DNA of 64,000 bases, taken from Nitrosovibrio sp. Nv4. GTDB lineage: Bacteria > Pseudomonadota > Gammaproteobacteria > Burkholderiales > SG8-39. Position 1 is the stretch's first letter, and each line of letters opens with the position of its first letter. Shown here in pieces: positions 23,152 through 50,940 of this stretch. The position numbers and the translations under genes were made by a program. Under the pieces are notes generated by a model. It did not search any database, was not told where the DNA came from, and was given only the letters and a program-made list of their open reading frames with translations. The stretch covers positions 2,313 to 66,312 of the forward strand of contig CAMDRF010000002.1 of assembly GCA_945906765.1 (NCBI GenBank), read 5' to 3'.

Positions 23152-23736
23152 TCAGACGTTCTTGAGGTACCTCGCCTCAAGCTCGCGCCAGCGCCCTGAG
23201 TTCACCGCCTCCTCGCGATCGTTGAACGTCGCCAGCTCGCTCTCGATCGCCGCGGTGTCGCCGGCGCGCGCGTCCGAGCGCGCGATGATGACCATGTCCG
23301 GCTCGCGCCGCGCGTTCACCGCGGCCTTGATCTTGCCGACCATCTCCGCCTTGCTCACCAACTGCTTGCCTTCATAGTGGCCGCATTTCTTGGGTGATAC
23401 CTGGTCTTCGAGGTGGAATGCCGCAACCCCGGTCTTTTCGTATTCGCGCACACTGCGCACCACGTTGAGGGCATTGCCGTGGCCGGCATCCATGTCGGCG
23501 ACCACCGGAATCTCGACTGCTTCCACGGTGCGTGATATCCATTGCGTCACCTCGGTCATCGTTAGCAGCCCGATGTCGGGGTAACCGTTGGCGCGTGAAT
23601 AACCGCCTCCGGTCAGGTACACCGCGTCGAAGCCCGCCAGCTGCACCAGCCTTGCGGTCAGCGTGTCGTAGGCCCCGGGCACGATGGCATAGCCGTGCTT
23701 CGCCACCAGCGCGCGGAACTTCTTCCTTGGGTTCAT
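23152..23736 (-). CDS. isocitrate lyase/PEP mutase-family protein (PrpB-like) with a probable in-frame internal deletion of about 100 aa
   Basis: 194 aa against about 290 expected. The N-terminal part is colinear with methylisocitrate lyases (VADMDAGHGN, HLEDQVSPKKCGH, IIARSDA). It then jumps to a C-terminal-tail-like ELATFNDREEAVNSGRWRELEARY. ATGA overlap with the aconitase stop. Confidence 0.65.
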   Translation of the reverse strand: MNPRKKFRALVAKHGYAIVPGAYDTLTARLVQLAGFDAVYLTGGGYSRANGYPDIGLLTMTEVTQWISRTVEAVEIPVVADMDAGHGNALNVVRSVREYEKTGVAAFHLEDQVSPKKCGHYEGKQLVSKAEMVGKIKAAVNARREPDMVIIARSDARAGDTAAIESELATFNDREEAVNSGRWRELEARYLKNV

Positions 23737-26414
23737 GCGGCGACCTCACGAGTAAGGCGATGGCGCACCACATGGTGCAGCAGCCCGCCGTGGCGATAAT
23801 ATTCGACATCGCGCGTCGTATCCAGGCGCGAGAGCAAGCTGAGCGTCTCGCGCCTGCCGTCGGCGCGCGTGATGGCGCACCCGAGCTCGCTCCTCGGCGC
23901 GGCATTGCCGCTGATGCCGGTGATCTCGAATAGCTCGGTGCCGTCCAGCGAGAGCGTCTTGCGGCTGACACCGCGAGGAAACTGCAGCGGCAGCACGCCG
24001 ATGCCAACTAGATTGGAGCGATGGATGCGCTCAAACGATTCCGCGATCACCGCGCGCACCCCGAGCAGACACGTGCCCTTGGCTGCCCAGTCGCGCGAGG
24101 ACCCGGCACCGTACTCCGAGCCGGCAATCACGACCAGCGGCACGTTTTCCCGCCGGTAGAGTTCGGCCGCCGCATGGATTGTCATCAGCGCGCCGTCCGG
24201 CAGGTGGCGCGTGCTGCTGCCCTCGCTGCCGGGGGTCATCTCATTGCAAACGCGGACGTTGGCAAAGGTGCCGCGGATCATCACGTCGTGGTTGAGCCGG
24301 CGCGCGGCGTAGTTGACGAAATCGCGCGGCGCGACGCCGAGCGATTGCAGGTATTCGGCCGCCGGCGTGCGCGCCGAGATCTCTCCGATCGGAGAAATGT
24401 GATCGGTGGTGAACATGTCGCCGAACATCGCCAGCACGCGCGCGCCCGAAATGTCTTGCATTGGACTTGCTTCACGTTCCATATGATCAAAAAAGGGCGG
24501 GCGTCTGATGAACGTGCTCCCGGTTTTCCACGGGAAGGTCTTGCCGGTGCCGCCCGCCAGCGCGCGCCATTCGGGTGTGCCCTCCAGCAAAGTCGCGTAG
24601 CGCTCGCGAAAAAGCGCCGGCGTGATGATCTCGCCGATGATCTTGCCGATCTCGCCGCCGTCGGGCCAGATGTCGCGCAGGTACACCGGCGTGCCCTCGC
24701 GGTCTTCGCCCAGCGGCTGGTTGGCGAGATCGGTGAGCACGCTGCCCGCCAGGGCGTAAGCCACGACCAGCGGCGGCGAGGCGAGGTAGCTCGCGCGCAC
24801 CGATGGATGGATGCGGCCTTCGAAATTGCGGTTGCCCGAAAGCACCGCCACGGCGGTGAGTCCGCCGGCTTCGATGGCCTCGGCGACCGGCGCGGACAAG
24901 GGGCCGGAATTCCCCATGCAGGTCATGCAGCCGAAGCCCGCCGGCTGGAAGCCGAGCGCATCGAGCGGCGCCTGCAGGCCGCTCTTCGCGAGGTAATCGG
25001 CGACGACGCGCGATCCGGGCGACAGCGAGGTCTTCACCCAGGAACGCGTCGTCAGCCCGCGCGCCAGCGCATTGCGCGCAAGCAGGCCGGCGCCGATCAT
25101 CACGGAAGGATTAGAGGTGTTGGTGCAGCTGGTTATGGCGGCGATCACGACGTCGCCGTCCTTCATGGACGATATGGAAGATTCCTTTTTCCTCTTCTTG
25201 GAAACCGATAGAAAATTCCTGAAAGTTTCCGGCACCTGCCCCAAGGGAACACAGTCCTGCGGCCGGCTGGGCCCGGATACGCTCGGCTCCACGGTTGACA
25301 GGTCGATCTCGATGATCCCGGTGAATTCGGCCGGCGGCGTGTCCGGGTCGCGCCACAATCCCTGCGCCCTGCAGTAGGCCTCGACGAGTGCGACCTGCGC
25401 TTCATCCCTGCCCGACAGCCGCAAATAGCGCAGCGTCTCCGCATCCACCGGAAAAAACCCCATGGTCGCGCCATTCTCGGGGCTCATGTTGGCGATCGTG
25501 GCGCGGTCGGGGAGCGAGAGCTCGGCGACGCCGGTGCCGAAATATTCGACGAACTTGTCCACCAGCTTGTGCCTGCGCAGGATCTGCGTGATCGCGAGCA
25601 CGAGGTCGGTCGAGGTGACGCCGGGCCGCAGCTTGCCGCTGAGACGGCAGCCGATCACTTCGGGCACCAGCATCGCGACCGGCTCGCCCAATGCGCCGGC
25701 GCCGCCTTCAAGGCCGCCGACGCCCCAGCCGAGGATCCCGAGGCTGTTGATCATCGCCGTATGGCTGTCCATGCCGAGAACCGAATCCGGATAGGCGAGC
25801 CGTCTTGCCCCATCCGGGCCGTCCTGATCGCTCGTCCACACGACCCGCGCGAGGTATTCGAGGTTGATCTGGTGGCAGATGCCGTTGCCCGGCGGCACGA
25901 TGCGCAGATTGTCGAACGCCTGCGCGCCCCAGCGCAGGAAGGCGAAGCGCTCGGCGTTGCGTTGCAGCTCGAGCGCCTGGTTGCGGGTCGCTGCATCCGC
26001 CGCGCCGTAGGCATCCACCATCACCGAATGATCCACGATCAGGTCCACGGGCACCGACGGATTGAGCCGCCTGGGGTCGCCACCGAGGCGAATTATCGCG
26101 TCGCGCATCGCGGCGAGGTCGCCCAGCAGCGGCACGCCGGAGGAATCCGGCATCAGCACCCGGGTGAAACGGAACGCGATCTCACGCTCGGCACGGCGCC
26201 GCGCCAGCCATCCGCCGAGCGCGGCGATGTCCGCGCCGTCCGAGCGCCCTTGCGCGTGCTGCCGCAGGACATTTTCCAGCACCACCTTGAGCGAACAGGG
26301 CAGGCGTGATACGCCGGCGAGGCCGAGTTCCTGCGCTGCCGCGAGACTGTAGTAATCGAACACTCCGCCGCCGGCGCGCAGCTCTCGCCGGGTTGCGCTG
26401 CCGCTGATGCTCAT
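23733..26414 (-). CDS. aconitate hydratase (AcnA/AcnD-type)
   Basis: 893 aa. Fe-S ligand motifs ITSCTNTSNP and GCMTCMGNSG. ATGA overlaps at both ends. Confidence 0.9.
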   Translation of the reverse strand: MSISGSATRRELRAGGGVFDYYSLAAAQELGLAGVSRLPCSLKVVLENVLRQHAQGRSDGADIAALGGWLARRRAEREIAFRFTRVLMPDSSGVPLLGDLAAMRDAIIRLGGDPRRLNPSVPVDLIVDHSVMVDAYGAADAATRNQALELQRNAERFAFLRWGAQAFDNLRIVPPGNGICHQINLEYLARVVWTSDQDGPDGARRLAYPDSVLGMDSHTAMINSLGILGWGVGGLEGGAGALGEPVAMLVPEVIGCRLSGKLRPGVTSTDLVLAITQILRRHKLVDKFVEYFGTGVAELSLPDRATIANMSPENGATMGFFPVDAETLRYLRLSGRDEAQVALVEAYCRAQGLWRDPDTPPAEFTGIIEIDLSTVEPSVSGPSRPQDCVPLGQVPETFRNFLSVSKKRKKESSISSMKDGDVVIAAITSCTNTSNPSVMIGAGLLARNALARGLTTRSWVKTSLSPGSRVVADYLAKSGLQAPLDALGFQPAGFGCMTCMGNSGPLSAPVAEAIEAGGLTAVAVLSGNRNFEGRIHPSVRASYLASPPLVVAYALAGSVLTDLANQPLGEDREGTPVYLRDIWPDGGEIGKIIGEIITPALFRERYATLLEGTPEWRALAGGTGKTFPWKTGSTFIRRPPFFDHMEREASPMQDISGARVLAMFGDMFTTDHISPIGEISARTPAAEYLQSLGVAPRDFVNYAARRLNHDVMIRGTFANVRVCNEMTPGSEGSSTRHLPDGALMTIHAAAELYRRENVPLVVIAGSEYGAGSSRDWAAKGTCLLGVRAVIAESFERIHRSNLVGIGVLPLQFPRGVSRKTLSLDGTELFEITGISGNAAPRSELGCAITRADGRRETLSLLSRLDTTRDVEYYRHGGLLHHVVRHRLTREVAA

Positions 26415-26965
26415 TGCATCAGTTCATCCGACCGCACGATCCGTGACTTGGCCATCGCCGCAATGAAATCGAGCGACCACTTCTGGGTCTCTTCGACCGC
26501 GTGGCCGCCCCAGGCGTGCGAAACGGTGAGGTCGCTCACCACCGTGGTCGGAAAGCCGAGCTGCCAGGCATCGACGGCAGTCGTGGCGACCGCGAGCGAG
26601 GTCGACCAGCCGATGAGTTGCAGCGCGTCCACGTCCAACTCGCGCAGCGTCAGTTCCAGATCGGAGCCGAAGAAGCCGCTGTAGCGCCGTTTGTGGACGA
26701 TGGTGTCCTTGCGCGCATCGAACAGTTCCGGGATCGGCGCCTGTCCCGGCGTCCAGATCTCGTTCGCAAGCTCCCAGAATTTCAGGAACCACTTGTCGGT
26801 CCGTCGCCGCGCGCTGCAGACAAACACCACCGGCATGCCCTTGTTGCGCGCCCATGCAAGGTACGCCGCGGTCCGCGGAAGGATGGCGCGCCGCTTCTCT
26901 ACCGCGCGCGCGCTTGGCGCGATCGAGTCCTGCGTCATGTCGAGAACCAGGACGGCTTCGCTCAT
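26411..26965 (-). CDS. isochorismatase-fold protein lacking the nucleophilic cysteine
   Basis: 184 aa. The Asp (VLVLDMTQD) and Lys (HKRRYSGF) positions are present. The Cys position reads GWSTSLAVATTAVDA, where the paralog next door has GCTTSGCVRGSVVDG. Confidence 0.7.
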   Translation of the reverse strand: MSEAVLVLDMTQDSIAPSARAVEKRRAILPRTAAYLAWARNKGMPVVFVCSARRRTDKWFLKFWELANEIWTPGQAPIPELFDARKDTIVHKRRYSGFFGSDLELTLRELDVDALQLIGWSTSLAVATTAVDAWQLGFPTTVVSDLTVSHAWGGHAVEETQKWSLDFIAAMAKSRIVRSDELMQ

Positions 26966-26978: not shown

Positions 26979-27689
26979 TCAACCGGCCATGCGCTTCGCG
27001 GCTGTCGCAGCGCCCAGCGGTCGCAGTTTCTCGAGTATCTCGGCCGCGGTTCCTACATCGGCGTACTTCGATGCCATGTCGAACAGATTCACGGCGTGGG
27101 AGGTGGCGCTGCGGTCATAGACGCAATCGGAGGGCACCAGCACACGAAAGTTGTAGGCGAAACCATCCACTACGCTGCCGCGCACGCAGCCGCTGGTGGT
27201 GCAGCCGGTCACGACCAGCGTATCGGCGCCGAGGTCGATGAGGTGGCTTACCAGCGGGGTGGCGAAAAATGCGCTCGGGTGCTTCTTCGGGATCAGCACG
27301 TCGCCCTCGCGCGGCGCGATCTCGGGCGGGAACTCATAGCCCTTTTCCGCGATGTTCATGATCGCCGGAACCTTCTGCGCGAGGCGCCCGCCGTCGGTGG
27401 CCTTGTTCTTCGGCGCCACGTGCGGATAGAGCACCGGCCAGCCGTTGGAGCGGAACTCGGCCAGCAGCGTCGCGATATTGCGCATCGCATTCCAACCGAT
27501 GTCGCCGCACGAGGTGGGAAATTCCTTGATCGCCTCCCAGAACGGCTTCGGCGCTGTGCCGATCGTGCGGTACTGCACGTCGATGATGAGGAGCGCCGGC
27601 CGCTTGCCGACGCCCGATGGCCGGCCGAATCCGGCGGCGTGGTAGGCCTTCTGTTCTTCCTCGCTGATGATCTCGTCCCAGGGTTTCAT
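26979..27689 (-). CDS. isochorismatase-family cysteine hydrolase (N-carbamoylsarcosine amidase/maleamate amidohydrolase-like)
   Basis: 236 aa. LLIIDVQ, KKHPSAFF and VVTGCTTSGCVRGS give a complete Asp-Lys-Cys triad context. Confidence 0.8.
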   Translation of the reverse strand: MKPWDEIISEEEQKAYHAAGFGRPSGVGKRPALLIIDVQYRTIGTAPKPFWEAIKEFPTSCGDIGWNAMRNIATLLAEFRSNGWPVLYPHVAPKNKATDGGRLAQKVPAIMNIAEKGYEFPPEIAPREGDVLIPKKHPSAFFATPLVSHLIDLGADTLVVTGCTTSGCVRGSVVDGFAYNFRVLVPSDCVYDRSATSHAVNLFDMASKYADVGTAAEILEKLRPLGAATAAKRMAG

Positions 27690-27741: not shown

Positions 27742-28584
27742 GTGAGAATCGAAACAGCGCGTACTCCGGCGTTCCTTCTGACCGGCTTTCTCGGCAGCGG
27801 CAAGACCACGCTGCTGAACGCCGCGCTGCGCGTCCCCGCCATGGCCAATACGGCGGTGGTGGTGAACGAACTGGGGGATATCGGCCTGGACAACCTGATC
27901 ATCGCGCAAGCCACCGACAACGTGGTACTGCTCGACGCGGGCTGCCTGTGCTGCGCGAACACCGGCGCGCTGCACGAAACGCTGGCCGACCTCGTCGGGC
28001 GGCGCGCACGTGGTGAGATTCCGCCCTTCAAGCGCGTGATCATCGAGACCAGCGGCGCCGCGGATCCTGTCCCGGTCGTTGCGTTCCTTAAAGAACTGAA
28101 TCCGGGCGCGGAATTCGTGGATTCGGTTGCAGACTCTTTTTCAGTTCATTCAGGTTACAAAAAGCCTTTTGCGCCGCTCGCTTCCCTCGGCCCGATCCGC
28201 AGCCGCGAGCACTTCTCCGGCATTCGCGCCTTCGCGTTCCGGCCGCCCGCGCCGGTCACGTGGGCCGGCTGGTCGGCGTGGTCGCGGCTGGTGGGGTCCG
28301 AATTCGGCGCGCGGCTGATCCGCGTCAAAGGGCTGTTGCACATGGAAGACGGCGGCGAGATCGCGTTCGTGCAGGGCGTGCAGGGAGTGTTCCACCCGCC
28401 GCAGCGCTTCCGCGAGTGGCCCGGCGGCGAAGGTGCGGGTGACCATGGCCACCGGCTCGTGTGCATCGCGCGCGACCTGCGCGAGCAGGACATCGCGGCG
28501 ACGCTGCCGGCACTCAATACACCGGCCGGCACCCAGGCCGTTTATTCGATGAAGGAACTCCAGGAAAGGCAGGCACAATCATGA
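27742..28584 (+). CDS. CobW/G3E-family P-loop GTPase-like protein with the central segment replaced (no NKxD/TKxD motif)
   Basis: GTG 27742, 280 aa. Walker A GFLGSGKTT, the metal motif GCLCC and IIETSGAADP are present. The 70 or so aa that normally carry the (N/T)KxD G4 motif are missing, and an AT-rich stretch (28085-28160) sits at that position. The C-terminal CobW_C-like part is retained. Confidence 0.65.
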   Translation: MRIETARTPAFLLTGFLGSGKTTLLNAALRVPAMANTAVVVNELGDIGLDNLIIAQATDNVVLLDAGCLCCANTGALHETLADLVGRRARGEIPPFKRVIIETSGAADPVPVVAFLKELNPGAEFVDSVADSFSVHSGYKKPFAPLASLGPIRSREHFSGIRAFAFRPPAPVTWAGWSAWSRLVGSEFGARLIRVKGLLHMEDGGEIAFVQGVQGVFHPPQRFREWPGGEGAGDHGHRLVCIARDLREQDIAATLPALNTPAGTQAVYSMKELQERQAQS

Positions 28585-29969
28585 GCGATTTTGTATTGCG
28601 CGGCGGGGAAGTGGTGTTTGCGGACCGCAAACCGGCGAAGCACGACATCCTGGTCGAGGCGGGCAAAATCAAGGCGCTGCTCGCACCCGGCGCGGCGGCC
28701 CCCGCCGGGATTGCCGAACAATCGGCGACCGGCCTGCATGTGTTTCCGGGACTTATCGACGCCCATGTCCATTTCGGCTTCGGCGAGAAGATCACGGAAT
28801 ACTCGACCGAGACGGCGTATGCCGCGCAGGGCGGCATCGCCACCATCCTCGGCTACTTCCTCAACAACGAGGCGTATGCCGATGTCTACAAGCGGGAGCA
28901 GGAGTATGCGCGCGCGCGCTGCCATGTCGACTACGGCTTTCATTTCAGCACCGCGAACGAACAGCACATCAAGGAACTCGGCAAATACGTGAGCGATTAC
29001 GGCGTCACCTCGTTCAAGTACTTCATGAACTTCAAGGGCGAGGAAGGCCGCTACCTCGGCCTGGACGGCACCGACGACGGTTTCTTCTGGGACCTGCTCG
29101 GCGAGTCCGCGCGCGTCGGCAGGCCGATCATCGTCTGCCATACCGAAAACATCGAGATCGTCAACCGCACGCGCGCCAGAGTGCAGGCGGCGGGCGGCAA
29201 GACGCTCAAGGACTGGTCCGCGTGCAAGCCCGCGGTCACCGAATCCGAACCCGCGCTGCGCGCCATGTATTTCGCCGAGCGCAGCGGCGCGCGCGTCTAC
29301 TTCCCGCACATTTCCTCGCGCCTCGCGCTGGACGAAGTGCGCAAATGGCGCAAGCGCTACGACCAGGTGTGGATCGAGACCTGCCCGCACTACCTGACGC
29401 ACACCGAGGATTCAGAGCTGGTGGGTATCGGCAAGGCGAACCCGCCGTTCCGCAGCAAGGACGATCAGGACGCGCTCTGGGAGGCGGTCGCCGACGGCAC
29501 CATCGACCTCATTGCCTCCGATCATTCGGCGCGCAAGCGCGCCACCAAGGACAAGCCGCTCTGGCTCGCCGCGCAGGGCTTCCCCGGCATCGCCGCCATC
29601 CTGCCGGTGATGCTCTCCGAGGGTTACCACAAGCGCAAGCTGCCGCTGCAGCGCATCTGCCAGCTGCTCGCGTCTGGTCCGGCGAAAATCTTCGACCTCG
29701 AACCGGTCAAAGGCCGCATTGCGCCGGGCTCCGATGCCGACTTCACCATCGTGGATCTGAACAAGGAGCGCAAATTCATCCCCGCAGAAATGGGCTCCGA
29801 GGCCGACTACAGCCTCTACGAGAACCAAGTGCTGAAGGGCTGGCCGGTGCGCACCGTCGTGCGCGGCGTCACCGTGATGGACAACGGCAGGATCGTCGGC
29901 CCTGGCGGCCACGGCACCTACCTGTGGCGCCGCATCGGACAACCGCCGATTCATGGCAAGCTGAGTTAG
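28581..29969 (+). CDS. cyclic amidohydrolase (dihydropyrimidinase/hydantoinase/dihydroorotase-like)
   Basis: ATG 28581 (ATGA overlap with the cobW-like stop), 462 aa. Metal ligands IDAHVHF, FKYFM (Lys), VCHTEN, FPHIS and ASDHS. Confidence 0.85.
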   Translation: MSDFVLRGGEVVFADRKPAKHDILVEAGKIKALLAPGAAAPAGIAEQSATGLHVFPGLIDAHVHFGFGEKITEYSTETAYAAQGGIATILGYFLNNEAYADVYKREQEYARARCHVDYGFHFSTANEQHIKELGKYVSDYGVTSFKYFMNFKGEEGRYLGLDGTDDGFFWDLLGESARVGRPIIVCHTENIEIVNRTRARVQAAGGKTLKDWSACKPAVTESEPALRAMYFAERSGARVYFPHISSRLALDEVRKWRKRYDQVWIETCPHYLTHTEDSELVGIGKANPPFRSKDDQDALWEAVADGTIDLIASDHSARKRATKDKPLWLAAQGFPGIAAILPVMLSEGYHKRKLPLQRICQLLASGPAKIFDLEPVKGRIAPGSDADFTIVDLNKERKFIPAEMGSEADYSLYENQVLKGWPVRTVVRGVTVMDNGRIVGPGGHGTYLWRRIGQPPIHGKLS

Positions 29970-29994: not shown

Positions 29995-30016
29995 GAAGCC
30001 GCCCTCAGGCGGCTTC
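29995..30016. terminator. perfect 9-bp hairpin between convergent genes (possible bidirectional terminator, no U-tract)
   Basis: GAAGCCGCC-ctca-GGCGGCTTC lies between the stops at 29969 (+) and 30005 (-). The loop contains the minus-strand stop codon. Confidence 0.35.
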
Positions 30017-36504: not shown

Positions 36505-36513
36505 GGGCTTCTC

Positions 36514-38160: not shown

Positions 38161-38399
38161 ATCCATCCCCTTGATATACGTATCCATCCGCTTCATATCC
38201 ATCCCCTCCTGTTGATTTCCGTCGAACCGACGGCCCACTCAGTCTTCCGCCGGCAGCAGGAAATGTCAAGCTGCCGCAAACGAGCGGCGGATGCCGCGCG
38301 GTGTTGGTGTGCGCCGCAGGGTGGCATATGATGATCCGATGGGGCACGGCGCGGCGCGCGGGTTCCGCGCGGCAGGCATATCGGAAAGGGATGATGACG

Positions 38400-39428: not shown

Positions 39429-39429
39429 G

Positions 39430-39741: not shown

Positions 39742-39748
39742 GGACGCC

Positions 39749-41110: not shown

Positions 41111-41129
41111 CGATTTCCCCTCGTTCCGG

Positions 41130-42059: not shown

Positions 42060-42233
42060 GGCTCAGACGCCTGTGGACAAGGATACGAATATCAATCCTA
42101 CGCCGGCCGCGCCACGTTCCATGAAACGCCCCTCTTTTTAATATTTCAGCCCTGCTAGACTTTCTATTGTTACAGAAGAAAGCGAGCGTCGCTTGATATC
42201 GTCCCGAAACACTGGAATTTTCACGAGGCGTCT

Positions 42234-43517: not shown

Positions 43518-43539
43518 ATGCGCGTGAGCGCTGCGATGG

Positions 43540-43860
43540 CGCGAACTTGCGGCAACGCGGCATCTGCGTCGGCGAGCGCGCACGCAGTCGCTGCTCAAGC
43601 TGGTCGGGCTGGAGGGATTCGAGAATTACTATCCGTCGCAGCTCTCCGGGGGCATGCGGCAACGCGTGAACCTCGCCCGCGCCCTCGCGATCAATCCCGA
43701 TGTGCTGCTCATGGATGAGCCTTTTTCGGCGCTCGATGCACAAACGCGTGAGATCATGTAGACGGGGATGCTGCGGATCTGGAACGTCGGCCGCAAGACC
43801 GTCAAGTAGATGATCGAGCACGACGTCCGCGAAAGCATCTCCGAGGAAGGCGACCGCCCC
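43540..43860 (+). pseudogene. ABC transporter ATP-binding protein fragment (NitT/TauT-type), 5'-truncated with in-frame stops
   Basis: ..[77 protein letters not shown].. has the Q-loop/signature/Walker B region but no Walker A. It contains two TAG stops. Confidence 0.75.
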
Positions 43861-43963
43861 AAATCAAATCGCAACCTTGGGGGCGCAGTGGAGTAAGGGG
43901 CAGCCTCGAAGCCGCCGGCTCGAGCCGGTGTCAGTTATGCAATCGATCAAGGGGAGCAATCAC

Positions 43964-44722
43964 ATGGATCTTCAACTCGCAGGCAAGGTCGCGCTGGTCA
44001 CGGGCGCCAGCATAGGACTTGGACGCTCGATCGCGGCTCTTCTTGCGGAGGAAGGCTGCCGCCTGGCGATCGTGGCGCGACGCGTCAACCTGCTGGAGAA
44101 AGCAGCGAATGAAATCGCGTCAACGGGCAGGGAGCGGCCGCTGACCATCGTCGAAGATATTACGGCCGACGGTGCCGCCGAACGCATCAAGGCGCAGACG
44201 ATGGCGCGCTTCGGGAGCCTGGACGTCCTGGTAAACAACGCCGGCGGCTCACGGCCCCTGACGGGTCTCGGTACAGAGGCGGAATGGGAAGAAGCGATGC
44301 TGCTGAATTACACCGCCGGGCGGCGCCTGGCCCATGCCTTCGTGCCGGTGATGCGTGAAAGAAAGTTCGGCCGGATCATCAACGTTACCGGGGGCGATGA
44401 GCCTACGATTATCAATGCCGCGAACCCGCCGAACGGCGCCGTTCACATCTGGGCCAAGGCCCTGTCGCGCACCGTCGCCAGGGATGGCATCACGGTGAAC
44501 AGCATCGTGCCCGGCCGCATCCATTCCGAGCAGATAGACCAGCGCATCCTTCCCACGGAACAGGCCCGCGAAGCCTGGGTCGCGGAGCATTGCCCCGTGG
44601 GCTATATCGGCGAGCCGGATGATCTGGGCGTCCTCGTGACATTCCTGTGCTCTCCGCGGGCGCGCTACATCACCGGTCAGGTCATCCATGTCGACGGGGG
44701 CGTTCGTCGCTATGCGCATTGA
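43964..44722 (+). CDS. short-chain dehydrogenase/reductase (SDR)
   Basis: ATG 43964 (SD AAGGGGAG), 252 aa. The TGASIGLG cofactor motif is present. The usual YxxxK is not obvious (..VHIWAKAL..), so this is an atypical SDR. Confidence 0.8.
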   Translation: MDLQLAGKVALVTGASIGLGRSIAALLAEEGCRLAIVARRVNLLEKAANEIASTGRERPLTIVEDITADGAAERIKAQTMARFGSLDVLVNNAGGSRPLTGLGTEAEWEEAMLLNYTAGRRLAHAFVPVMRERKFGRIINVTGGDEPTIINAANPPNGAVHIWAKALSRTVARDGITVNSIVPGRIHSEQIDQRILPTEQAREAWVAEHCPVGYIGEPDDLGVLVTFLCSPRARYITGQVIHVDGGVRRYAH

Positions 44723-44761
44723 GTCGCGCGGTCGCCACTGCGCATCATAGATTCTGGAATT

Positions 44762-45154
44762 ATGAAGAAAGAAATCATAGATGTCCCCGGGATAAGCAGG
44801 CATCTGAAGAAGGAAGGGATTCCCCTTTCGGCGGTGGTTCGCGCCGGGGGATTCGTCTTCGTCTCGGGCCAGCCGCCGGTCGACCGCAGGACCGGCAAGA
44901 TCCCGCTGGTCAACGTCAAGAAGCAGACGCAGATGGTGCTCGACAACATCAAGGTGTGCCTGGAGGCGGCGGGGTCGTCCATGGACAAGGTGGTCAAGTG
45001 CACGGTCTACATTACCAACGCCGCGTACTTCGATGAAGTGAACGACGTGTATCGCAGGTACTTCAGGCGCAATCCGCCGGCGCGCGTGTTCTGCAACGTA
45101 GGGTCGTGGCCGAAGAAGTTCGACATCGAGATCGACTGCATCGCCATCGTGTGA
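44762..45154 (+). CDS. RidA/YjgF/Rid-family protein (1 of 3 in tandem)
   Basis: 130 aa. ..FVFVSGQ.., ..NPPARVFCNV..IEIDCIAIV, with the conserved Arg retained. Confidence 0.85.
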   Translation: MKKEIIDVPGISRHLKKEGIPLSAVVRAGGFVFVSGQPPVDRRTGKIPLVNVKKQTQMVLDNIKVCLEAAGSSMDKVVKCTVYITNAAYFDEVNDVYRRYFRRNPPARVFCNVGSWPKKFDIEIDCIAIV

Positions 45155-45552
45155 TTGCGGACAGTCGGATCATCGTTCCGCCTCCAAGCCGCGGGCTCGA
45201 CATGGCCGCAGGCTACGGCTGGGCGCAAAGCACCGCAATTCGCGCCGGGAACTACCTGTTCGTATCCGGCGTGGTCGCGATAGATTCCGAGAGCGGCGAG
45301 CGGCTGAACGGTACCGTGGCGAGCGAGGCCCATGTCGTTTTCCGGAACCTGAAGCTGGTGCTGGAAAGCGCCGGGACGTCGCTTGAGCGCTTGGTGCAGG
45401 TCCGCGCCATGATCTACGACCGAATCGAATACGACGCATTGAACCGCGTCTACCGGCAATACCTGCCTGAAGGTCCGCCCGCGCGGACCGTGTGGAGCGT
45501 CCAGATCATCGACGCATTCAAGGTGCAGCTCGACGCGATTGCCGTCATCTAA
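45151..45552 (+). CDS. RidA/YjgF/Rid-family protein (2 of 3)
   Basis: GTG 45151 overlaps the previous stop, 133 aa. ..YLFVSGV.., ..GPPARTVWSV..LDAIAVI. Confidence 0.8.
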   Translation: MIADSRIIVPPPSRGLDMAAGYGWAQSTAIRAGNYLFVSGVVAIDSESGERLNGTVASEAHVVFRNLKLVLESAGTSLERLVQVRAMIYDRIEYDALNRVYRQYLPEGPPARTVWSVQIIDAFKVQLDAIAVI

Positions 45553-45568
45553 CGCCGGAACATCCGCT

Positions 45569-45970
45569 ATGCCCATCGCGCGCGAAATCATCACCCCGAA
45601 AAACGACAAGCTCAATGTATCGCGCAATCTCAACCTTCCGCACAGTCCGGGTATCCGCGCAGGGAACTTGATCTTCCTGTCGGGCATGCTGTCGGTTGAT
45701 CCGCTCACCGGCGAGCGCAGCCAGGGCACGGTTGCGCACGAGACCCGCCAGACGCTGGCGAACATGCGCCACCTGCTGGAGTCGGCCGGTTCCTCGCTCG
45801 AGCGCGTGGTCAAGATCAACGTTCTCCTCTACGACATGCTCGAGTTCGATAACATGAACGCGGTCTACCGGGAGTTTTTTCCCAACGATCCGCCGGCCCG
45901 CACCACCTGCGGCGTGCAGCTGAGCGCGGGCATGAAAATCGAGATCGAGTGCATCGTGCTCGCCGGCTGA
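45569..45970 (+). CDS. RidA/YjgF/Rid-family protein (3 of 3)
   Basis: ATG 45569 (MPIAREIITPK..), 133 aa. ..LIFLSGM.., ..DPPARTTCGV..IEIECIVLA. Confidence 0.85.
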   Translation: MPIAREIITPKNDKLNVSRNLNLPHSPGIRAGNLIFLSGMLSVDPLTGERSQGTVAHETRQTLANMRHLLESAGSSLERVVKINVLLYDMLEFDNMNAVYREFFPNDPPARTTCGVQLSAGMKIEIECIVLAG

Positions 45971-46186
45971 GGCATGTGCGGCGTTAGCCTGAGTCGGCCT
46001 CGGAGTTATCCGGACGAATCACCAGAAGGTCCCGGCCGGCATCCGCGAGATCAGCCCCGACATGTGGCGCCGGTTCGTGGCGACGAATTTCTCTGGCGCC
46101 GAGACCTGGACAAATTGTGGTTCGCCATGTCGCGGACCCCGATGCGGCACCTCGTACATAATGAGCATCTTTGACCCTGGCACACC

Positions 46187-47353
46187 ATGCGCCAGCTGAA
46201 GATACCGGCGGTTTTCATGCGCGGCGGCACCAGCAATGCCGTCGTATTTAACGCAAGCGATCTGCCGCGCGACCGTGCCCGGTGGGACGAGATCTTTCTC
46301 GCCGCGATTGGCAGCCCGGATCCCTACGGGCGGCAGCTCGATGGTATGGGCGGCGGCGTATCATCGCTCTCCAAGGTTTGCGTCGTGGGGCCCCCGACGC
46401 GAGGGGACGCCGACATCGACTACACCTTCGCGCAGGTGCAGGTGCGGGAAGCCAGGGTGGACTACAGTGGGAACTGCGGCAACATGTCCTCCGCCATGGG
46501 CCCGTACGCGGTGGACGAGGGACTGGTGAAGGTGTCGGGCCCGGACGCGCTGGTGCGTGTCCATAACACCAACACGGCAAAAATCATCTGGTCGCGGTTT
46601 GCGCTCGATGGCGGCATGGCGGCAGTAGACGGCAACCTCGCCATCCCGGGCGTGGCCGGGACCGGCGCGCCGGTCAGGCTCGAGTTCCGCGAGCCGGGCG
46701 GCGCGACCACCGGAAATCTCCTGCCCACAGGCAACGTGGCGGATATCCTGGAGGTGCCGGGCTGCGGCAGGTACCGCGTTTCGATGGTGGATGCGGCCAA
46801 CGCATGCGTCTTCGTCCGCGCAACAGATCTCGGGATCAAGGGAACGGAGCTTCCGGACGAGATCGACGCCAATCCCGGTCTGCTGGGCAAGCTCGCCGCG
46901 ATCCGGATCGCCGCTTCGGTCGCGATGGGCATCGCCAGGACCGCGAAGGAAGCGCAGGAGCGCGCCATGGTGCCTTTCGTGGGATTCGTTTCGACGCCGC
47001 AGGACGCGAAGACGCTGACGGGCGAGACGCTCAAAGGGACGGAAGTGGATCTCACCGGCCGCATGATGTCGAACGGGCAACCGCACCGTGCGCTGCCGCT
47101 CACCGCTTCGCTGTGCATGGCTGTGGCGGCACGGCTCCCGGGCAGCGTGGTGTTCGATGCGATCATGCCCGGCGGCAACCCCGCGTCCGAAATCCGGATC
47201 GCCATGCCCTCCGGCGTACTGACGGTCGCCGCGGCAGTGAATAAACTTGATGGTCAGTGGTACGCCGAGCAGGGCGCTTTCTACCGCACCCAGCGGCGCA
47301 TGTTCGAGGGTAATGTGCTCGTGCGCCTCGCGCCTGGCCGCGGCATCAGCTAA
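46187..47353 (+). CDS. prpF: PrpF-family isomerase (methylaconitate/aconitate isomerase, 4-oxalomesaconate tautomerase-like)
   Basis: 388 aa. N-terminus IPAVFMRGGTSNAVVF and GNCGNMSSAMGPYA. The 3' end overlaps the convergent tcuA-like gene by 4 nt. Confidence 0.85.
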   Translation: MRQLKIPAVFMRGGTSNAVVFNASDLPRDRARWDEIFLAAIGSPDPYGRQLDGMGGGVSSLSKVCVVGPPTRGDADIDYTFAQVQVREARVDYSGNCGNMSSAMGPYAVDEGLVKVSGPDALVRVHNTNTAKIIWSRFALDGGMAAVDGNLAIPGVAGTGAPVRLEFREPGGATTGNLLPTGNVADILEVPGCGRYRVSMVDAANACVFVRATDLGIKGTELPDEIDANPGLLGKLAAIRIAASVAMGIARTAKEAQERAMVPFVGFVSTPQDAKTLTGETLKGTEVDLTGRMMSNGQPHRALPLTASLCMAVAARLPGSVVFDAIMPGGNPASEIRIAMPSGVLTVAAAVNKLDGQWYAEQGAFYRTQRRMFEGNVLVRLAPGRGIS

Positions 47354-48840
47354 CAGGCGCGGCGTCCGGCGCTGCTTCCCGCGATGCGCCCGAAAACGGC
47401 GCCTGACATCAGGCCCGCGCCGCCAAGGTAATTTTCGTAGAAGATGCCGCCCACGATTTCCCCGGCGGCATACAGTCCGGGTATGGTGCGGTCGCTGGTA
47501 TTCTGCACCTCGCAGTGCTCGTTGATACGCAGGCCGCCGAACGAGAACGTGATGCCGCAGGTGACGACAAAGCCCGTATAGGGCGGCTTGTCGAGGGGCA
47601 GTGCCCAGTTCGACTTCGGCGGCGTGATGCCCGAGGTCGATACGCCGTCGAGGATGGCCGGGTTGTACTTGCCCGGGTTGCAGGCGGCATTGAACTCGCG
47701 CACCGTGCGCGACAGTCCGTTCACATCGATCTCGAGCTTTGCCGCGAGTTCCTCGATGGTCGGCGCTTCTGCCTTGGTCACCTGGTGAATGCGGTATTCG
47801 TCGCGCACCATGCCGATCGTCTTGGCGTCGAAGATCTGAACCGCGGCGCGCTTCGGCTGCTTCATCACTTCCCGTCCGTACTTGGCGTAGGTGTGGTTGC
47901 GGTAGTCCGCGCCTTCATCGACGAAGCGCTCACCCTTCAGGTTGACGATGATGCCGATCGGATAGGAGTGCTTCTGGAAATTGTCCAGCACCACCCTGTC
48001 GCCGAAGGGCGGGGCGCTGATGTCCCACTGGACGGCATGGCAAGTGGACCATCCGCCGAAGGCCTGGGCATCGATGTCCAGCGCAGCGCGCAGGCCATCG
48101 CCGGTGTTGTAGCGCGTGCCCCTGACCAGGCACGATTCCCAACCCGCCCCGTAGTAGCGCACGCGCATTTCCGGGTTGGCCTCGAAGCCGCCGCAGGCGA
48201 GCACGACGTTCTTCGCATGGACATCGGCGTAACCGTCCGGGCCCATGACGTGGACGCCGGTGACAGCGCCTGACTTGTCCTGCAGCAGCCGGCGCATCGC
48301 CGTCGCATAGCGGATTTCGACGCCCAAGCGCTCGGTCTGCTTGATCAGCTGGTCGACCAGTCCCCAGCCGCCGCCGACGGCCTCGATATTGACCCCGCCG
48401 TAGAAGTGATGTTTGCCTTCGACCTTGAAGGACTGGCGTCCGAACATCGGCAGGAAGCGCACACGATTATGGCGCATCCAGCGCATGGTGTCGCGCGAGC
48501 GGCCCACCAGCAGCTCCGACAGCGTGTCGTCGGTCTGACCTTCGGTGACGCGGCGCAGGTCGTCCAGGTAGTCTTCTTTCTTCAGTACCGGCAGGACGAT
48601 CTGGTTCGCTTCGGCCTCCGACAGATCGTCCAGGATGTCACCGCGCAGGTCATCGAGCCCATCGTGGACGAAACGGAACCCGCCCGCGGTGAACAGCGAA
48701 TTTCCGCCGCGCTCGTCGATGGGTGCTTTTTCGAGCACCAGCACTCTTGCAGCGCCCTGCTCCATCGCGGAAATGGCGGCGCACAGGGCGGCGTTGCCCG
48801 CGCCGACAACGATGACATCTAACTTCTGATCTGACGGCAT
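47350..48840 (-). CDS. FAD-dependent tricarballylate dehydrogenase TcuA-like flavoprotein
   Basis: 496 aa. VIVVGAGNAALCAA, and a C-terminal GLYAAGEIVGG. Overall colinear with my recollection of the TcuA family. Confidence 0.75.
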   Translation of the reverse strand: MPSDQKLDVIVVGAGNAALCAAISAMEQGAARVLVLEKAPIDERGGNSLFTAGGFRFVHDGLDDLRGDILDDLSEAEANQIVLPVLKKEDYLDDLRRVTEGQTDDTLSELLVGRSRDTMRWMRHNRVRFLPMFGRQSFKVEGKHHFYGGVNIEAVGGGWGLVDQLIKQTERLGVEIRYATAMRRLLQDKSGAVTGVHVMGPDGYADVHAKNVVLACGGFEANPEMRVRYYGAGWESCLVRGTRYNTGDGLRAALDIDAQAFGGWSTCHAVQWDISAPPFGDRVVLDNFQKHSYPIGIIVNLKGERFVDEGADYRNHTYAKYGREVMKQPKRAAVQIFDAKTIGMVRDEYRIHQVTKAEAPTIEELAAKLEIDVNGLSRTVREFNAACNPGKYNPAILDGVSTSGITPPKSNWALPLDKPPYTGFVVTCGITFSFGGLRINEHCEVQNTSDRTIPGLYAAGEIVGGIFYENYLGGAGLMSGAVFGRIAGSSAGRRAC

Positions 48841-49003
48841 CCAACGCTCCCGTTATGTCAGGCGTCTGCGCATTTGTTTCGAACTGATTTGATTACTCTA
48901 AGGCAAGAAAAGTGGTGAAACAAGCGCGCGTTCGCATCGCCGGCGATTGAGTCGGTCCCGCGGGCGCAGTACCATGGAAATCCTCAGGCATCGGAGATCG
49001 GAA

Positions 49004-50404
49004 ATGCAACTCGACAATCCTAATCCGGCCCGCGCGCTGGCAGCCGGTAACCTGCGCGAACTGATGCGCTGGGCCACCGAGGCCCGCGGCCGACCGCTGC
49101 CGGAAGCTGTGCGACGCCGTGCCGCGACGATCCTCTCGGATGACATTGGCGCCATCGTCGCCGGCTCGCTCGAACCGCAGGTGGCGCGCGCGCGCGAAGG
49201 ATTCGTGCGCACCGCGTCCGGAACCGCGGAGGCCACGGTGTTCGCAAAAGGCGCGCCTCGCCTCGATCGGTATTCGGCGGCCTGCGCGAACGGCATGGCG
49301 ATCACCTGGTGCGAACTCGATGAAGGGTTCCGGAATGCTTCCTGCCACGCGGGCGCCTACACGATCCCCGCGCTGCTCGCCGAGGCAGAGTCGCGCGGAC
49401 TGAGCGTGGACGAAGTGCTGCGCGCGCTCGCCGTTGCCTACGAGGTAACGACCCGCTTTGCGCTCGCCTTCCCGTTCCCCACGTTCAACGTCCATCCGCA
49501 CGCCGCGTTCGCGACGATCGGTGCCGCGGCCGCGGTATCGCTGGTGCGCGGGCATGACGCGAAGACGTTGCAGGATGCGGTGACTGGCGCCGCCACCATG
49601 ACCTTCGCGGGTCCTTTCGATACCGCGGTGGAAGGCTCGCTGGTGCGCAACGGCTGGACCGCGGCCGGCGCCTGGATCGGGTTGCGCGCCGCGGAGTGGG
49701 CGGAAGCGGGCATCGCCGGCGGCATCGATACGCCTTACGACGTCTTCGCCGGCATCTTCAGGACGCGCGCCATTCCGGAGGCACTGGTCGAAGGCCTCGG
49801 CACGGCGTGGTCGGTCGCCAACGGTTACCACAAGATTTACGCGTGCTGCAACTACGCTCATGCGGCGGTCGAAGCGACGCTGAATCTACGCGGCCGCCTG
49901 AAGCAGCGCAAGGCGGAGGACATAGAGGAAATCCTGGTGGAGGCCGGCCCGGGCGGCCTCGCGCTCACGACGGTCGAACCCGAGACTGTGCTCGCCGCCA
50001 AGTTCTCGATTCCGCACGCGGTCGCCGCAACCACGCACCTGGGTACGGCGGGCGCGGCGGCGTTCACGTTCGACACGCTGCGCGATGAAAGCATCGCTCG
50101 ATTGCGCCGGCGCGTCCGCCTCGCACCCTACGCCGACGTCGGACCTGCGCCGCGAGACCGCCCCGCGCGCGTAGTGTGGAAGTTTCGGGACGGCGAAGAG
50201 ATGTCCGCCGTCGTCGAAAATCCGCGCGGCGGCGCCGACCAACCCTTCGACGAACCCACCTTGCTCTCGAAACTTGCCGATAACGCGGGCGGCGTTTTCC
50301 CCTCAGCTCCAAAAACGCTATCGGCCATCATTCGAGGAGAGGGTGCAGTGCTATCGCGATCATGGCGCGACGTTGTTGCGAGCGTGGTAGAGGGAAAAAC
50401 CTGA
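49004..50404 (+). CDS. MmgE/PrpD-family protein (2-methylcitrate dehydratase superfamily)
   Basis: ATG 49004 (GGAG 7 nt upstream; longer alternatives at 48947 and 48974), about 466 aa. The two-domain PrpD pattern is seen (..SDDIGAIVAG.., ..YHKIYACCNYAHAAV..). Confidence 0.8.
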   Translation: MQLDNPNPARALAAGNLRELMRWATEARGRPLPEAVRRRAATILSDDIGAIVAGSLEPQVARAREGFVRTASGTAEATVFAKGAPRLDRYSAACANGMAITWCELDEGFRNASCHAGAYTIPALLAEAESRGLSVDEVLRALAVAYEVTTRFALAFPFPTFNVHPHAAFATIGAAAAVSLVRGHDAKTLQDAVTGAATMTFAGPFDTAVEGSLVRNGWTAAGAWIGLRAAEWAEAGIAGGIDTPYDVFAGIFRTRAIPEALVEGLGTAWSVANGYHKIYACCNYAHAAVEATLNLRGRLKQRKAEDIEEILVEAGPGGLALTTVEPETVLAAKFSIPHAVAATTHLGTAGAAAFTFDTLRDESIARLRRRVRLAPYADVGPAPRDRPARVVWKFRDGEEMSAVVENPRGGADQPFDEPTLLSKLADNAGGVFPSAPKTLSAIIRGEGAVLSRSWRDVVASVVEGKT

Positions 50405-50517
50405 AACTCGCGCGAGAACTTGTTCTTGCGCTGCGGCAGGTCGGGTCATCGTGAAATTGTGGTGCGAAGCCGCGCGCAGTCTCACATTTGATTGAACAGG
50501 ATAAGATCCCTGCAGCC

Positions 50518-50940
50518 ATGATCCATATCCGGGGAATCGACCATGTCGTCCTGCGCGTCAAGGACATCGAGGTGATGCGCCGGTTCTACTGCGACGTCCT
50601 TGGTGCCGAGCACGTGGCCTACCGCCCGAAATTCGGCATGAGCCACCTGCGCGTTGGCGCCTCGATGATCGATCTGGTCGAGGTCGATGGCCCGGTCGGC
50701 ATGCGCGGCGCCGCCGCCGGCAGGGAAGGCCGGAACATGGATCACCTGTGCCTGCGCATCGAGCCATTCGACCAGGAGGCGATCGCAGAACACCTCAGGC
50801 GCCACGGCGTCCCGGTCGGCGACATCAAGCCGCGGTTCGGCGCAGAGGGCAACAGCGTCTCGATACACCTCACCGATCCGGAAGGCAATGGCGTCGAGCT
50901 CAAGGGGCCTTCCGACGGCAGCGCCAAGCCGCCTAGCTGA
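50518..50940 (+). CDS. VOC/glyoxalase-family protein
   Basis: MIHIRGIDHVVLRVKD...DHLCLRI...SIHLTDPEGNGVEL. The start is either 50518 or TTG 50488. Confidence 0.75.
   Translation: MIHIRGIDHVVLRVKDIEVMRRFYCDVLGAEHVAYRPKFGMSHLRVGASMIDLVEVDGPVGMRGAAAGREGRNMDHLCLRIEPFDQEAIAEHLRRHGVPVGDIKPRFGAEGNSVSIHLTDPEGNGVELKGPSDGSAKPPS

Follow-up and report, generated by a model that had tools for sequence, protein, structure and literature searches.

A 27-gene cluster combining amide hydrolases with tricarboxylate enzymes in Nitrosovibrio sp. Nv4

Layout and composition of the cluster

A 64,000-nucleotide stretch of contig CAMDRF010000002.1 of Nitrosovibrio sp. Nv4 (hereafter the window) carries, at positions 23152–50940, a dense cluster of catabolic genes in which hydrolases of amides stand beside enzymes of tricarboxylate metabolism. 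Genes were called from third-position G+C content (GC3) and their starts were then adjusted against orthologues; families were assigned with Pfam and NCBIfam models, and the nearest characterised relatives were taken from matches in the PDB. Labels L001–L178 designate related loci or assemblies recovered in comparative scans. The cluster comprises 27 genes in eight strand runs and is 94% coding, with four intergenic gaps longer than 150 bp plus one of 446 bp (43518–43963) (Table 1). An earlier note on this DNA had described about 27 genes lying between comEC and the remnant of an insertion sequence (IS), with almost no intergenic space. Both borders, the gene number and the coding density agree with that description, whereas the six transcription blocks it had counted became eight. 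All the families it had named were upheld by Pfam and NCBIfam; its list had missed or left unnamed the CobW/COG0523 GTPase and the NMT1/THI5-like protein, as well as some of the Zn-dependent alcohol dehydrogenase (Zn-ADH), ApbA/PanE reductase, short-chain dehydrogenase/reductase (SDR), second FAD_binding_2 and VOC/glyoxalase proteins.

Table 1. Features of the cluster and its borders (positions in the window)
Feature	Position	Strand	Assignment and remarks
comEC	20826–23135		Competence, DUF4131 and Lactamase_B domains; left border of the cluster
PrpB-like PEP-mutase/ICL-family lyase	23152–23736	-	194 aa versus 288 aa in relatives; in-frame internal deletion
Aconitate hydratase, AcnA type	23733–26414	-	893 aa; NCBIfam
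isoC1, isochorismatase-like	26411–26965	-	Pfam PF00857; nucleophile cysteine missing
isoC2, isochorismatase-family cysteine hydrolase	26979–27689	-	NicF-like; PDB, motifs
CobW/COG0523 GTPase, putative metallochaperone	27757–28584	+	Pfam; start codon uncertain
HydA, cyclic amidohydrolase	28581–29969	+	Allantoinase/hydantoinase/dihydropyrimidinase-like; no equivalog
Fe(II)/2-oxoglutarate (2OG) oxygenase	30005–30997	-	Pfam DIOX_N and 2OG-FeII_Oxy; start from orthologues
NMT1/THI5-like protein	31017–31913	-	Pfam NMT1_2 and NMT1
Alpha/beta-fold hydrolase	31958–32815	-	Pfam Abhydrolase_1
PuuE-like polysaccharide-deacetylase-fold hydrolase	32812–33705	-	Polysacc_deac_1; candidate cyclic imidase
FAD1, FAD_binding_2 flavoprotein	33757–35160	-	Soluble fumarate-reductase/flavocytochrome-c-like
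TRAP transporter, DctM	35185–36504	-	Pfam
TRAP transporter, DctQ	36514–37053	-	Pfam
TRAP transporter, DctP	37132–38196	-	Pfam
Zn-ADH-superfamily/quinone-oxidoreductase-like reductase	38400–39428	+	Pfam ADH_N, ADH_zinc_N
DUF4387 protein, CmlB-like small subunit	39430–39741	-	PDB 9erq_B, E = 8e-26, 94 bits
AtuA-family protein, CmlA-like large subunit	39749–41110	-	PDB 9erq_A, 411 bits, residues 2–444
ApbA/PanE-family 2-oxoacid (ketopantoate-type) reductase	41130–42059	-	Pfam; NCBIfam subfamily TIGR00745
Amidase-signature enzyme, malonamidase-E2-like	42234–43517	+	Candidate half-amidase
NitT/TauT-type ABC ATPase pseudogene remnant	43518–43963	+	Rearrangement scar; only long non-coding gap; not a regulator
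SDR	43964–44722	+	Pfam; 88% orthologue in L177/L008
RidA	44762–45154	+	Pfam PF01042
RidA	45202–45552	+	Pfam PF01042
RidA	45569–45970	+	Pfam PF01042
PrpF-family isomerase	46187–47353	+	Not PrpF or OMA-tautomerase equivalog
TcuA, FAD-dependent tricarballylate dehydrogenase	47350–48840	-	NCBIfam equivalog
MmgE/PrpD-family protein	49007–50404	+	Pfam; not PrpD equivalog
VOC/glyoxalase-family protein	50488–50940	+	Pfam
IS1182-family remnant	50981–51453	.	Perfect 21-bp inverted repeats; right border

The genes flanking the cluster are of housekeeping type: recJ, a lolCDE-like set, kefC and comEC on the left, and on the right a series running from dodecin through spoT/relA to thrS. The G+C content of the window is about 65% with a flat profile. 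GC3 of the cluster was 0.836 compared with 0.834 in the flanks (p = 0.83), and relative synonymous codon usage correlated with r = 0.986. The composition thus bears no sign of recent foreign origin and, being that of the flanks, does not support the earlier designation of the cluster as an island in the sense of recently acquired DNA. The called genes include no match to an integrase, and Rfam located a single tRNA (61013–61086), about 10 kb from the cluster. The copy of the cluster in L169 has flanks other than those in the window. An independent Logan assembly, L001, was 99.87% identical to the window and collinear with it over positions 36187–49660.

At the right border, positions 51073–51256 showed about 72% nucleotide identity to transposase genes of the IS1182 family. 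The remnant as a whole is a miniature element of this family, whose 431-bp interior contains a fragment of the transposase gene.

Gene content of the three modules

Module 1, the core, consists of the cyclic amidohydrolase HydA and a CobW-type metallochaperone, divergent from isoC2 (with isoC1), the aconitase and the PrpB-like lyase; the PrpD-family and FAD_binding_2 proteins are associated with it. HydA scored under the cutoff of every NCBIfam model (255 against 393 bits for the D-hydantoinase model TIGR02033), and its PDB matches were allantoinase 3hm7 and L- and D-hydantoinases, at about 190–200 bits. Its orthologues are 89–90% identical in L174, L177 and L178, and 62–65% in cultured strains. 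A pair of CobW and amidohydrolase genes in L087 was considered as an orthologue of the CobW–HydA pair and rejected, its identity of only 28% indicating another paralogue. The top PDB match of isoC2 was 3ot4/3uao, the maleamate amidohydrolase NicF, for which an Asp-Lys-Cys triad has been described (PMC5806882), followed by N-carbamoylsarcosine amidase. The match to NicF amounted to 116 bits over residues 68–224 only, and no NCBIfam equivalog was reached; the Asp/Lys/Cys motifs are kept as IIDVQ, PKKHPSAF and TSGCV. These features make isoC2 a candidate half-amide or carbamoyl hydrolase. Close homologues of isoC2 abound in metagenomes, where 7,634 of the 8,000 scored candidates had E ≤ 1e-10 and the top 120 clusters were at least 85% identical. 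In isoC1, by contrast, STSLAV is found where the cysteine-hydrolase branch has T-x-x-C-V. The isoC1 gene is missing altogether from the L178 operon. The aconitase was assigned to the AcnA type with 1257 bits (cutoff 686) and failed as AcnD (785 against 1420); its gene adjoins the isoC genes in L169, L174, L177 and L178.

Module 2 comprises the TRAP transporter, FAD1, the PuuE-fold hydrolase, the alpha/beta hydrolase, the NMT1-like protein, the 2OG oxygenase and the Zn-ADH-type reductase. DctP has a signal peptide, and the closest solved DctP matched it with only about 70 bits, too weak for its ligand to be deduced. FAD1, whose gene follows dctM in L087 and L174, scored 240 bits with TIGR01813, under the cutoff. 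The PuuE-like protein reached 117 bits with TIGR03212 against a cutoff of 425, and matched PuuE (PDB 3cl6, 88 bits) and also HpPgdA (3qbu); the PuuE/HpPgdA fold group includes the fungal cyclic imidase HxnM (PMC9304392). Its gene is paired with that of the alpha/beta hydrolase in L087, L177 and L178. For the 2OG oxygenase, which has the HxD...H and RxS motifs, the first PDB match was 6jyv, an uncharacterised oxidoreductase, and the second was thymine dioxygenase 5c3p. The gene of the NMT1-like protein lies directly upstream of the oxygenase gene in the window, L169, L177 and L178, and its product has an N-terminus without a signal peptide, so that it is probably a cytoplasmic partner or an enzyme and not a binding protein for transport. 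A Zn-ADH orthologue of 91% identity stands beside the TRAP module in L087.

In module 3, a malonamidase-E2-like amidase is divergent from a CmlAB-type lyase, and the RidA genes, TcuA and the PrpF-family isomerase complete the set. The amidase aligned over its full length with malonamidase E2 (PDB 1ock, 300 bits) and remained under every equivalog cutoff of NCBIfam. The AtuA-family and DUF4387 proteins matched the two chains of 9erq; 9erq and 9evf are deposited as citramalate lyase CmlA/CmlB, and roughly half of the aligned positions of the AtuA-like protein and 9erq_A were identical when counted by eye. The pair is thus predicted to be a CmlAB-like, CoA-independent lyase acting on a C–C bond of a 2-hydroxy acid. 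It had been listed by the earlier note for its presence, which holds, and through this homology it is no longer functionally blank. Cml activity has been described for the enzyme of Raoultella planticola, the only one for which cleavage of (S)-citramalate to pyruvate and acetate is known (bioRxiv 10.64898/2026.01.16.699985). Literature searches on DUF4387, on AtuA/DUF1446, on citrazinate, isonicotinate and tricarballylate, and on CmlA with AtuA returned nothing useful. L007, L008, L054 and L169 show the same divergent arrangement of the amidase gene and the AtuA/DUF4387 pair, without the ApbA gene between them.

All three RidA proteins keep the arginine of the P-A-R motif, as judged from an alignment to E. 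coli RidA. The PrpF-family protein scored 313 bits with TIGR02334 against a cutoff of 441; aconitate isomerases are members of the PrpF superfamily. TcuA, by contrast, passed its equivalog model (NF006130, 569 bits against a cutoff of 369), and a 92% identical orthologue adjoins the amidase gene in L054. The flavoproteins co-operonic with PrpF in L169 (12895–14373) and L174 (17966–19444) were only 45–47% identical to TcuA of the window. The presence of a true orthologue in L054 and of these more distant flavoproteins in L169 and L174 indicates two TcuA-like paralogues in the lineage. For the PrpD-family protein, which is 59–62% identical to proteins of Methylobacterium operons, the sole match to a PrpD model was of 30 bits, and the top PDB matches were IDS epimerase and IRG1, at about 50 bits.

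State of the copy in the window

Two genes of module 1 carry internal deletions. In the PrpB-like lyase, TIGR02317 covered only model positions 2–162 of 285 (189 bits against the PrpB cutoff of 354). When the full-length L174 protein was used in tblastn, its residues 1–167 aligned to 23736–23242 and residues 251–288 to 23268–23155, in the same frame. Thus, residues ~168–250 of the 288-aa orthologues (about 90 aa) are missing and both ends are kept. Truncation of this gene at the comEC junction, with the NMT1–2OG pair torn off, had been considered and was rejected by the same search, which showed the C-terminus to be retained. CobW matched positions 1–105 of the 180-position Pfam cobW profile, plus CobW_C; an in-frame deletion of about 57 aa affects its GTPase domain, residues 2–111 and 153–332 of the L174 protein aligning in the same frame to overlapping DNA. 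In L177 the cobW gene is split into two open reading frames (ORFs; 8913–9931), which suggests repeated decay of the CobW metallochaperone.

The long non-coding gap upstream of the SDR gene contains a remnant of an ABC ATPase gene. Its frame-2 translation includes LSGGMRQR, and over 226 bp it is 90% identical at the nucleotide level to the ATPase gene located upstream of the SDR gene in L008, which keeps an intact operon there (NMT1-type binding protein, permease, ATPase, SDR). Together, the PrpB-like and CobW deletions and the ABC-ATPase and IS remnants point to ongoing rearrangement and possibly to a partial loss of function.

Conservation in close relatives

A scan of 185,579 species genomes anchored on the AtuA-like protein returned 80 loci at 61–91% identity. 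DUF4387 adjoins the AtuA-like gene in 77 of them, and an amidase homologue occurs nearby in 10, with adjacency confirmed in the loci that were read in detail; beyond these two partners almost nothing is conserved around the AtuA-like gene. A scan of metagenomes anchored on the PuuE-like protein retrieved homologues of about 65% identity, mostly on short contigs or in unrelated contexts, and told little about function.

Close relatives keep most of the cluster in shuffled order. L169 has the amidase divergent from AtuA–DUF4387, PrpF with a TcuA-like flavoprotein, and two RidA genes, followed by 2OG–NMT1–PrpB (288 aa)–aconitase–isoC1–isoC2. L174–176 carry DctPQM–FAD1, two PrpD genes, and hydA–cobW divergent from isoC2–isoC1–aconitase–PrpB, continuing with a CN-hydrolase, PrpF, a flavoprotein and a third PrpD. 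L177 and L008 represent about 40 kb of one contig, on which two PrpD genes, PuuE in two copies, the alpha/beta hydrolase, NMT1 and 2OG are accompanied by hydA–cobW divergent from isoC2–isoC1–aconitase–PrpB–VOC, then by Zn-ADH, ApbA, PrpF, RidA, SDR and an ABC transporter, and further by more RidA genes, a distant PrpD-family gene, a FAD_binding_2 fragment, the amidase and AtuA–DUF4387. L178 has a gene set like that of the other relatives plus an Asp/Glu-racemase-family gene. In L087, module 2 stands alone: a TRAP–FAD1–PuuE–alpha/beta hydrolase–NMT1 unit with Zn-ADH, beside a transposase gene. Orthologues in these loci are mostly 71–94% identical to the products of the window, with lower values for CobW (52–68%), DctQ (66%), the amidase (58%) and the PuuE-like protein (50%) of L178, and the VOC protein of L177 (53%). 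The same ~20–25 families thus lie, in rearranged order, within 20–40 kb in no fewer than four related assemblies of Betaproteobacteria. The earlier note had allowed that the blocks might occur only apart in relatives; comparison of co-occurrence showed most of the genes to be clustered in four or more related assemblies. In more distant genomes, at least three modules do occur apart.

Two other arrangements of the AtuA/DUF4387 pair were observed in the course of the scans. In L172 (147–11682), two such pairs lie 8 kb apart, one of them co-operonic with an HpcH/HpaI aldolase, an ATP-dependent hydantoinase A/B and an NMT1-type ABC transporter. In L006, a plasmid of Diaphorobacter sp. HDW4B, a LysR gene adjoins an operon (13558–18048) that encodes an LLM flavin monooxygenase, AtuA, DUF4387 and MmgE/PrpD, which is another recurring association of AtuA/DUF4387 with PrpD.

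Partial sets in distant lineages and cultured strains

Partial sets of the same families are present outside this lineage. L061, an alphaproteobacterial metagenome-assembled genome, has isoC2 (73%), hydA (57%), CobW, two amidases, AtuA–DUF4387, two PuuE-like proteins and a 2OG oxygenase (49%). In L071 (Methylobacteriaceae), PrpB-like, isoC2, a FAD protein, a hydA-like protein, an amidase, AtuA–DUF4387, a TcuA-like protein and PrpF are found, with a GntR gene adjoining. The soil contig L160 combines PrpB-like, PrpF, TcuA (62%), PrpD, an amidase, two PuuE-like proteins, isoC2 (73%) and more amide hydrolases.

Operons of cultured strains were reached from megablast searches against plasmids, which gave piecemeal matches only. 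On plasmid 4 of Variovorax sp. SRS16, an IclR gene is divergent from an ABC transporter, which is followed by PrpD–FAD–PrpD–CobW–hydA–isoC2. In Methylobacterium nodulans (pMNOD02) and M. currus, a GntR gene is divergent from ICL/PEPM–isoC2, an ABC transporter and PrpD–FAD–PrpD–hydA-like. Hydrogenophaga sp. BPS33 (pBPS33-1) has a LysR gene divergent from TctC, an amidohydrolase, CobW, hydA, isoC2 and prpB, and in Novosphingobium resinovorum (pSA1) isoC2–PrpB-like is divergent from CobW–hydA. What these compact, as yet uncharacterised core operons of Variovorax, Methylobacterium, Hydrogenophaga and Novosphingobium share with the window is isoC2 (66–76% identity), hydA (62–65%, and 38–39% in Methylobacterium), the PrpB-like lyase (42–48%), a PrpD-like protein (59–62% in Methylobacterium, 39% in Variovorax) and the FAD protein (37–40%). 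Unlike the cluster described here, they have a regulator of the IclR, GntR or LysR type and an uptake system of the ABC or TctC type, and they lack its aconitase, TRAP, CmlAB-like, TcuA and RidA genes.

Absence of a local regulator

For the 27 products, Pfam and NCBIfam gave no match to a DNA-binding or transcription-factor family, in agreement with the earlier note, which had recognised no transcription factor in the cluster. The sole helix-turn-helix protein among the ORFs scanned in the 64 kb is a small Xre-type ORF at 61181–61540. Rfam detected no riboswitch or other RNA inside the cluster, the tRNA being the only RNA in the window. Promoter regions were inspected by eye for an operator common to them, and this together with alignment of the isoC2/cobW intergenic region with those of relatives revealed only a conserved -10-like box. 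The shuffled clusters of L169, L174–176, L177 with L008, and L178 also have no transcription factor among their cluster genes, with the sole exception of a LysR gene that is located at the edge of L178 and faces other genes. Combined, these results indicate that regulation in this lineage is not encoded locally, which raises the question of what controls some 27 catabolic genes spread over eight units.

A proposed pathway and its rivals

The characterised relatives of the enzymes converge on cyclic amides, half-amides of dicarboxylates and branched di- and tricarboxylates. On this basis, the reading we favour, at somewhat better than an even chance, is that the locus represents a supercluster native to the chromosome of an uncultured member of the Burkholderiales and assembled from three or more portable modules, encoding a modular pathway that would take up and hydrolyse carboxylated cyclic imides or amides and then process acids of the aconitate or citramalate type. 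A carboxylated cyclic imide, ureide or lactam would be imported and its ring opened hydrolytically by HydA, the PuuE-like enzyme or both. The resulting half-amides would be deamidated by isoC2 and the malonamidase-like amidase, and RidA would resolve imine or enamine intermediates. The branched di- or tricarboxylate so released could be desaturated by TcuA and FAD1, isomerised by the PrpF and PrpD-like proteins, hydrated by the aconitase or reduced by ApbA, SDR and Zn-ADH; finally, the PrpB-like and CmlAB-like lyases would cleave it to intermediates of the tricarboxylic acid cycle and pyruvate or acetate, with ammonia being released. All six steps are deduced from homology and gene context. 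The earlier idea that an amide- or imide-bearing polycarboxylate is broken down gains from the homologies to malonamidase E2, NicF, the PuuE/cyclic-imidase fold, TcuA and CmlAB; the single pathway and its substrate are still something that we infer.

One rival holds that the genes form independent small operons for separate substrates, kept close to one another by rearrangement and shared ancestry. This is possible but, in our judgement, unlikely. It accounts for the solitary module 2 of L087, for the ~65 of 80 genomes in which the AtuA/DUF4387 pair has no other cluster genes nearby, for the ~65%-identity PuuE-like homologues in unrelated contexts, for the separate regulators and ABC transporters of the cultured-strain core operons, and for the heavy shuffling of gene order with its scars. 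It does not explain why, through all that shuffling, four or more related assemblies keep ~20–25 families within 20–40 kb, nor why parts of the set come together again in unrelated Alphaproteobacteria (L061, L071) and a soil contig (L160); in addition, the chemistries are complementary, leading from a ring hydrolase to a half-amidase and on to tricarboxylate enzymes. A set that is kept together through rearrangement and re-forms in part in other classes argues for a functional link over chance neighbourhood, and since the modules are also found apart, they appear to be reusable units, so that the cluster may serve a family of related substrates. The presence of an aconitase, PrpB-like, PrpF-family and PrpD-family proteins and a TcuA equivalog, together with the aconitate isomerases known in the PrpF superfamily, would also fit a variant methylcitrate cycle for propionate or a plain tricarballylate/aconitate locus in which the amidases are incidental. 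We regard this as very improbable, given that there is no methylcitrate synthase, that the aconitase is AcnA instead of AcnD, that PrpF, PrpD and PrpB remain under their equivalog cutoffs, and that TcuB, TcuC and TcuR are not present; the amide hydrolases, moreover, are the partners conserved most tightly: in each relative that was examined, isoC2 and hydA either share an operon with the aconitase and PrpB-like genes or are transcribed divergently from them.

A different doubt concerns the copy itself, which could be decaying and partly non-functional in this strain. The two in-frame deletions (~90 aa in the PrpB-like lyase, ~57 aa in CobW), an ABC-ATPase remnant where relatives carry a full transporter, the IS remnant at the border and the lack of a regulator all lean this way; in the remaining 25 genes, however, the ORFs are undamaged and GC3 and codon usage are normal, and the catalytic motifs that were inspected, in isoC2, in the RidA proteins and in the 2OG oxygenase, are intact, so that decay of the cluster seems improbable. 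Several observations nevertheless count against the modular pathway as proposed. Most of the enzymes score below every equivalog threshold. The contexts of the AtuA/DUF4387 pair and of the PuuE-like gene are unrelated in the majority of genomes, which implies that the modules can serve other pathways and that the supercluster may act on more than one substrate. TcuA has no TcuB partner in the cluster. Lastly, the PrpB-like and CobW genes of the window carry their internal deletions, which, as the left half of the window is not covered by an independent assembly, could also be assembly artefacts.

Beyond the modular pathway, a wider and more speculative proposal, which we hold with considerable doubt, is that these genes specify an undescribed, largely hydrolytic route leading directly from carboxylated N-heterocycles or cyclic imides to aconitate-, tricarballylate- or citramalate-type acids and ammonia. 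It would occur widely among the Alpha- and Betaproteobacteria of soil and would lack, in this lineage, a local regulator of its own. Such a route may employ a core of CobW-assisted HydA, isoC2, aconitase, PrpB-like and PrpD/FAD enzymes together with the amidase, the CmlAB-like lyase, TcuA and PrpF. Compounds proposed as its substrates are citrazinate-like 2,6-dioxopyridine carboxylates, the imides of aconitate or tricarballylate, and maleimides derived from tetrapyrroles, for example hematinic acid, a choice based on chemical reasoning and on the pathways of Mycobacterium sp. INA1 and Eubacterium barkeri. If the proposed pathway is right, soil bacteria would have a common yet undescribed means of recovering nitrogen and carbon from cyclic amides and imides of small branched acids, and roles would emerge for CmlAB-type AtuA/DUF4387 lyases, for PrpD-family proteins other than PrpD, for PuuE-fold proteins other than allantoinase and for CobW-coupled amidohydrolases, large families that now carry generic annotation only. 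With the core operon present in cultured Variovorax, Methylobacterium, Hydrogenophaga and Novosphingobium, the question is directly testable.

Other observations in the flanks

A second group of catabolic appearance is located in the left flank (6969–13372) and includes two TctC (Bug) receptors, a MaoC-like dehydratase, a family III CoA-transferase and an AMP-dependent ligase, with no regulator among the ORFs scanned. A possible toxin-antitoxin pair (16565–17632) occupies the interval from the lolD-like gene to kefC; it would consist of a UPF0175 protein and, after it, an ORF that matches a PIN domain weakly. In the right flank, a stand-alone response-regulator receiver domain (55660–56037) covers profile positions 30–110 only and is maybe truncated at its N-terminus or miscalled at its start.

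Comparison with known pathways

No described pathway fits the cluster: comparisons with the prp, tcu, rut, nic and hyu systems each failed on the defining genes, in line with the earlier note, which could not match it to one. The AcnD/PrpF variant of the 2-methylcitrate cycle (PMC5690661) shares the aconitase, PrpF, PrpD and PrpB superfamilies, but the cluster has AcnA in place of AcnD, all its prp scores are below equivalog cutoffs, and no citrate-synthase family member that could act as the methylcitrate synthase PrpC was matched among the 27 products. With TcuRABC of Salmonella it shares the TcuA equivalog, whose predicted product cis-aconitate would feed the aconitase and the PrpF-type isomerase. 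Among the cluster products, Pfam and NCBIfam yielded no family corresponding to the Fe-S membrane partner TcuB, the transporter TcuC or the regulator TcuR, and the TRAP system stands in for TcuC. As for the Rut pathway, RutA and RutF were not found and the scores for RutB (34–40 bits), RutC (46–61) and RutD (39) were far below cutoffs. The nic genes nicX, nicD, nicC and nicAB are not present in the cluster, and the allantoinase equivalog score was not reached by the PuuE-like protein. Of the hyu type, neither a racemase nor a carbamoylase of the M20 or CN-hydrolase kind occurs in the window, an Asp_Glu_race gene being found only in L178.

Closer in logic are pathways of cyclic imides and N-heterocycles. 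Blastobacter has a bacterial route consisting of an imidase and a half-amidase. Nicotinate fermentation by E. barkeri and isonicotinate/citrazinate catabolism by Mycobacterium sp. INA1 combine a cyclic amidohydrolase or imidase with enzymes of the PrpF, aconitase and ICL/PEP-mutase families, and the product of the INA1 route is tricarballylate. By comparison with these two, the cluster is without a B12 mutase, Mo-hydroxylases and a CoA ligase, and the organisms and gene orders are unrelated. The order of events shared with cyclic-imide pathways would be ring opening to a half-amide and its subsequent deamidation; the cluster differs in having no Mo-hydroxylase or flavin-monooxygenase genes for preparation of the ring and in adding tricarboxylate enzymes and two C–C lyases, and the likeness is at the family level only. 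The lower nicotinate pathway of Aspergillus nidulans draws on the same four families, namely a PuuE/HpPgdA-fold hydrolase (imidase HxnM), an amidase-signature enzyme (amidase HxnN), a T7H-like 2OG oxygenase (dioxygenase HxnY, likewise reported to resemble thymine dioxygenase, T7H) and an SDR (HxnW) (PMC9304392). For the citramalate lyase CmlAB (9erq/9evf), the correspondence extends to the two-subunit make-up, with an AtuA-family large subunit and an adjoining DUF4387 small subunit that are matched over nearly their full length. By contrast to CmlAB, with which about half of the aligned positions are identical, the pair in the window is divergently coupled to a malonamidase-like amidase, and its substrate could be another 2-hydroxy di- or tricarboxylate.

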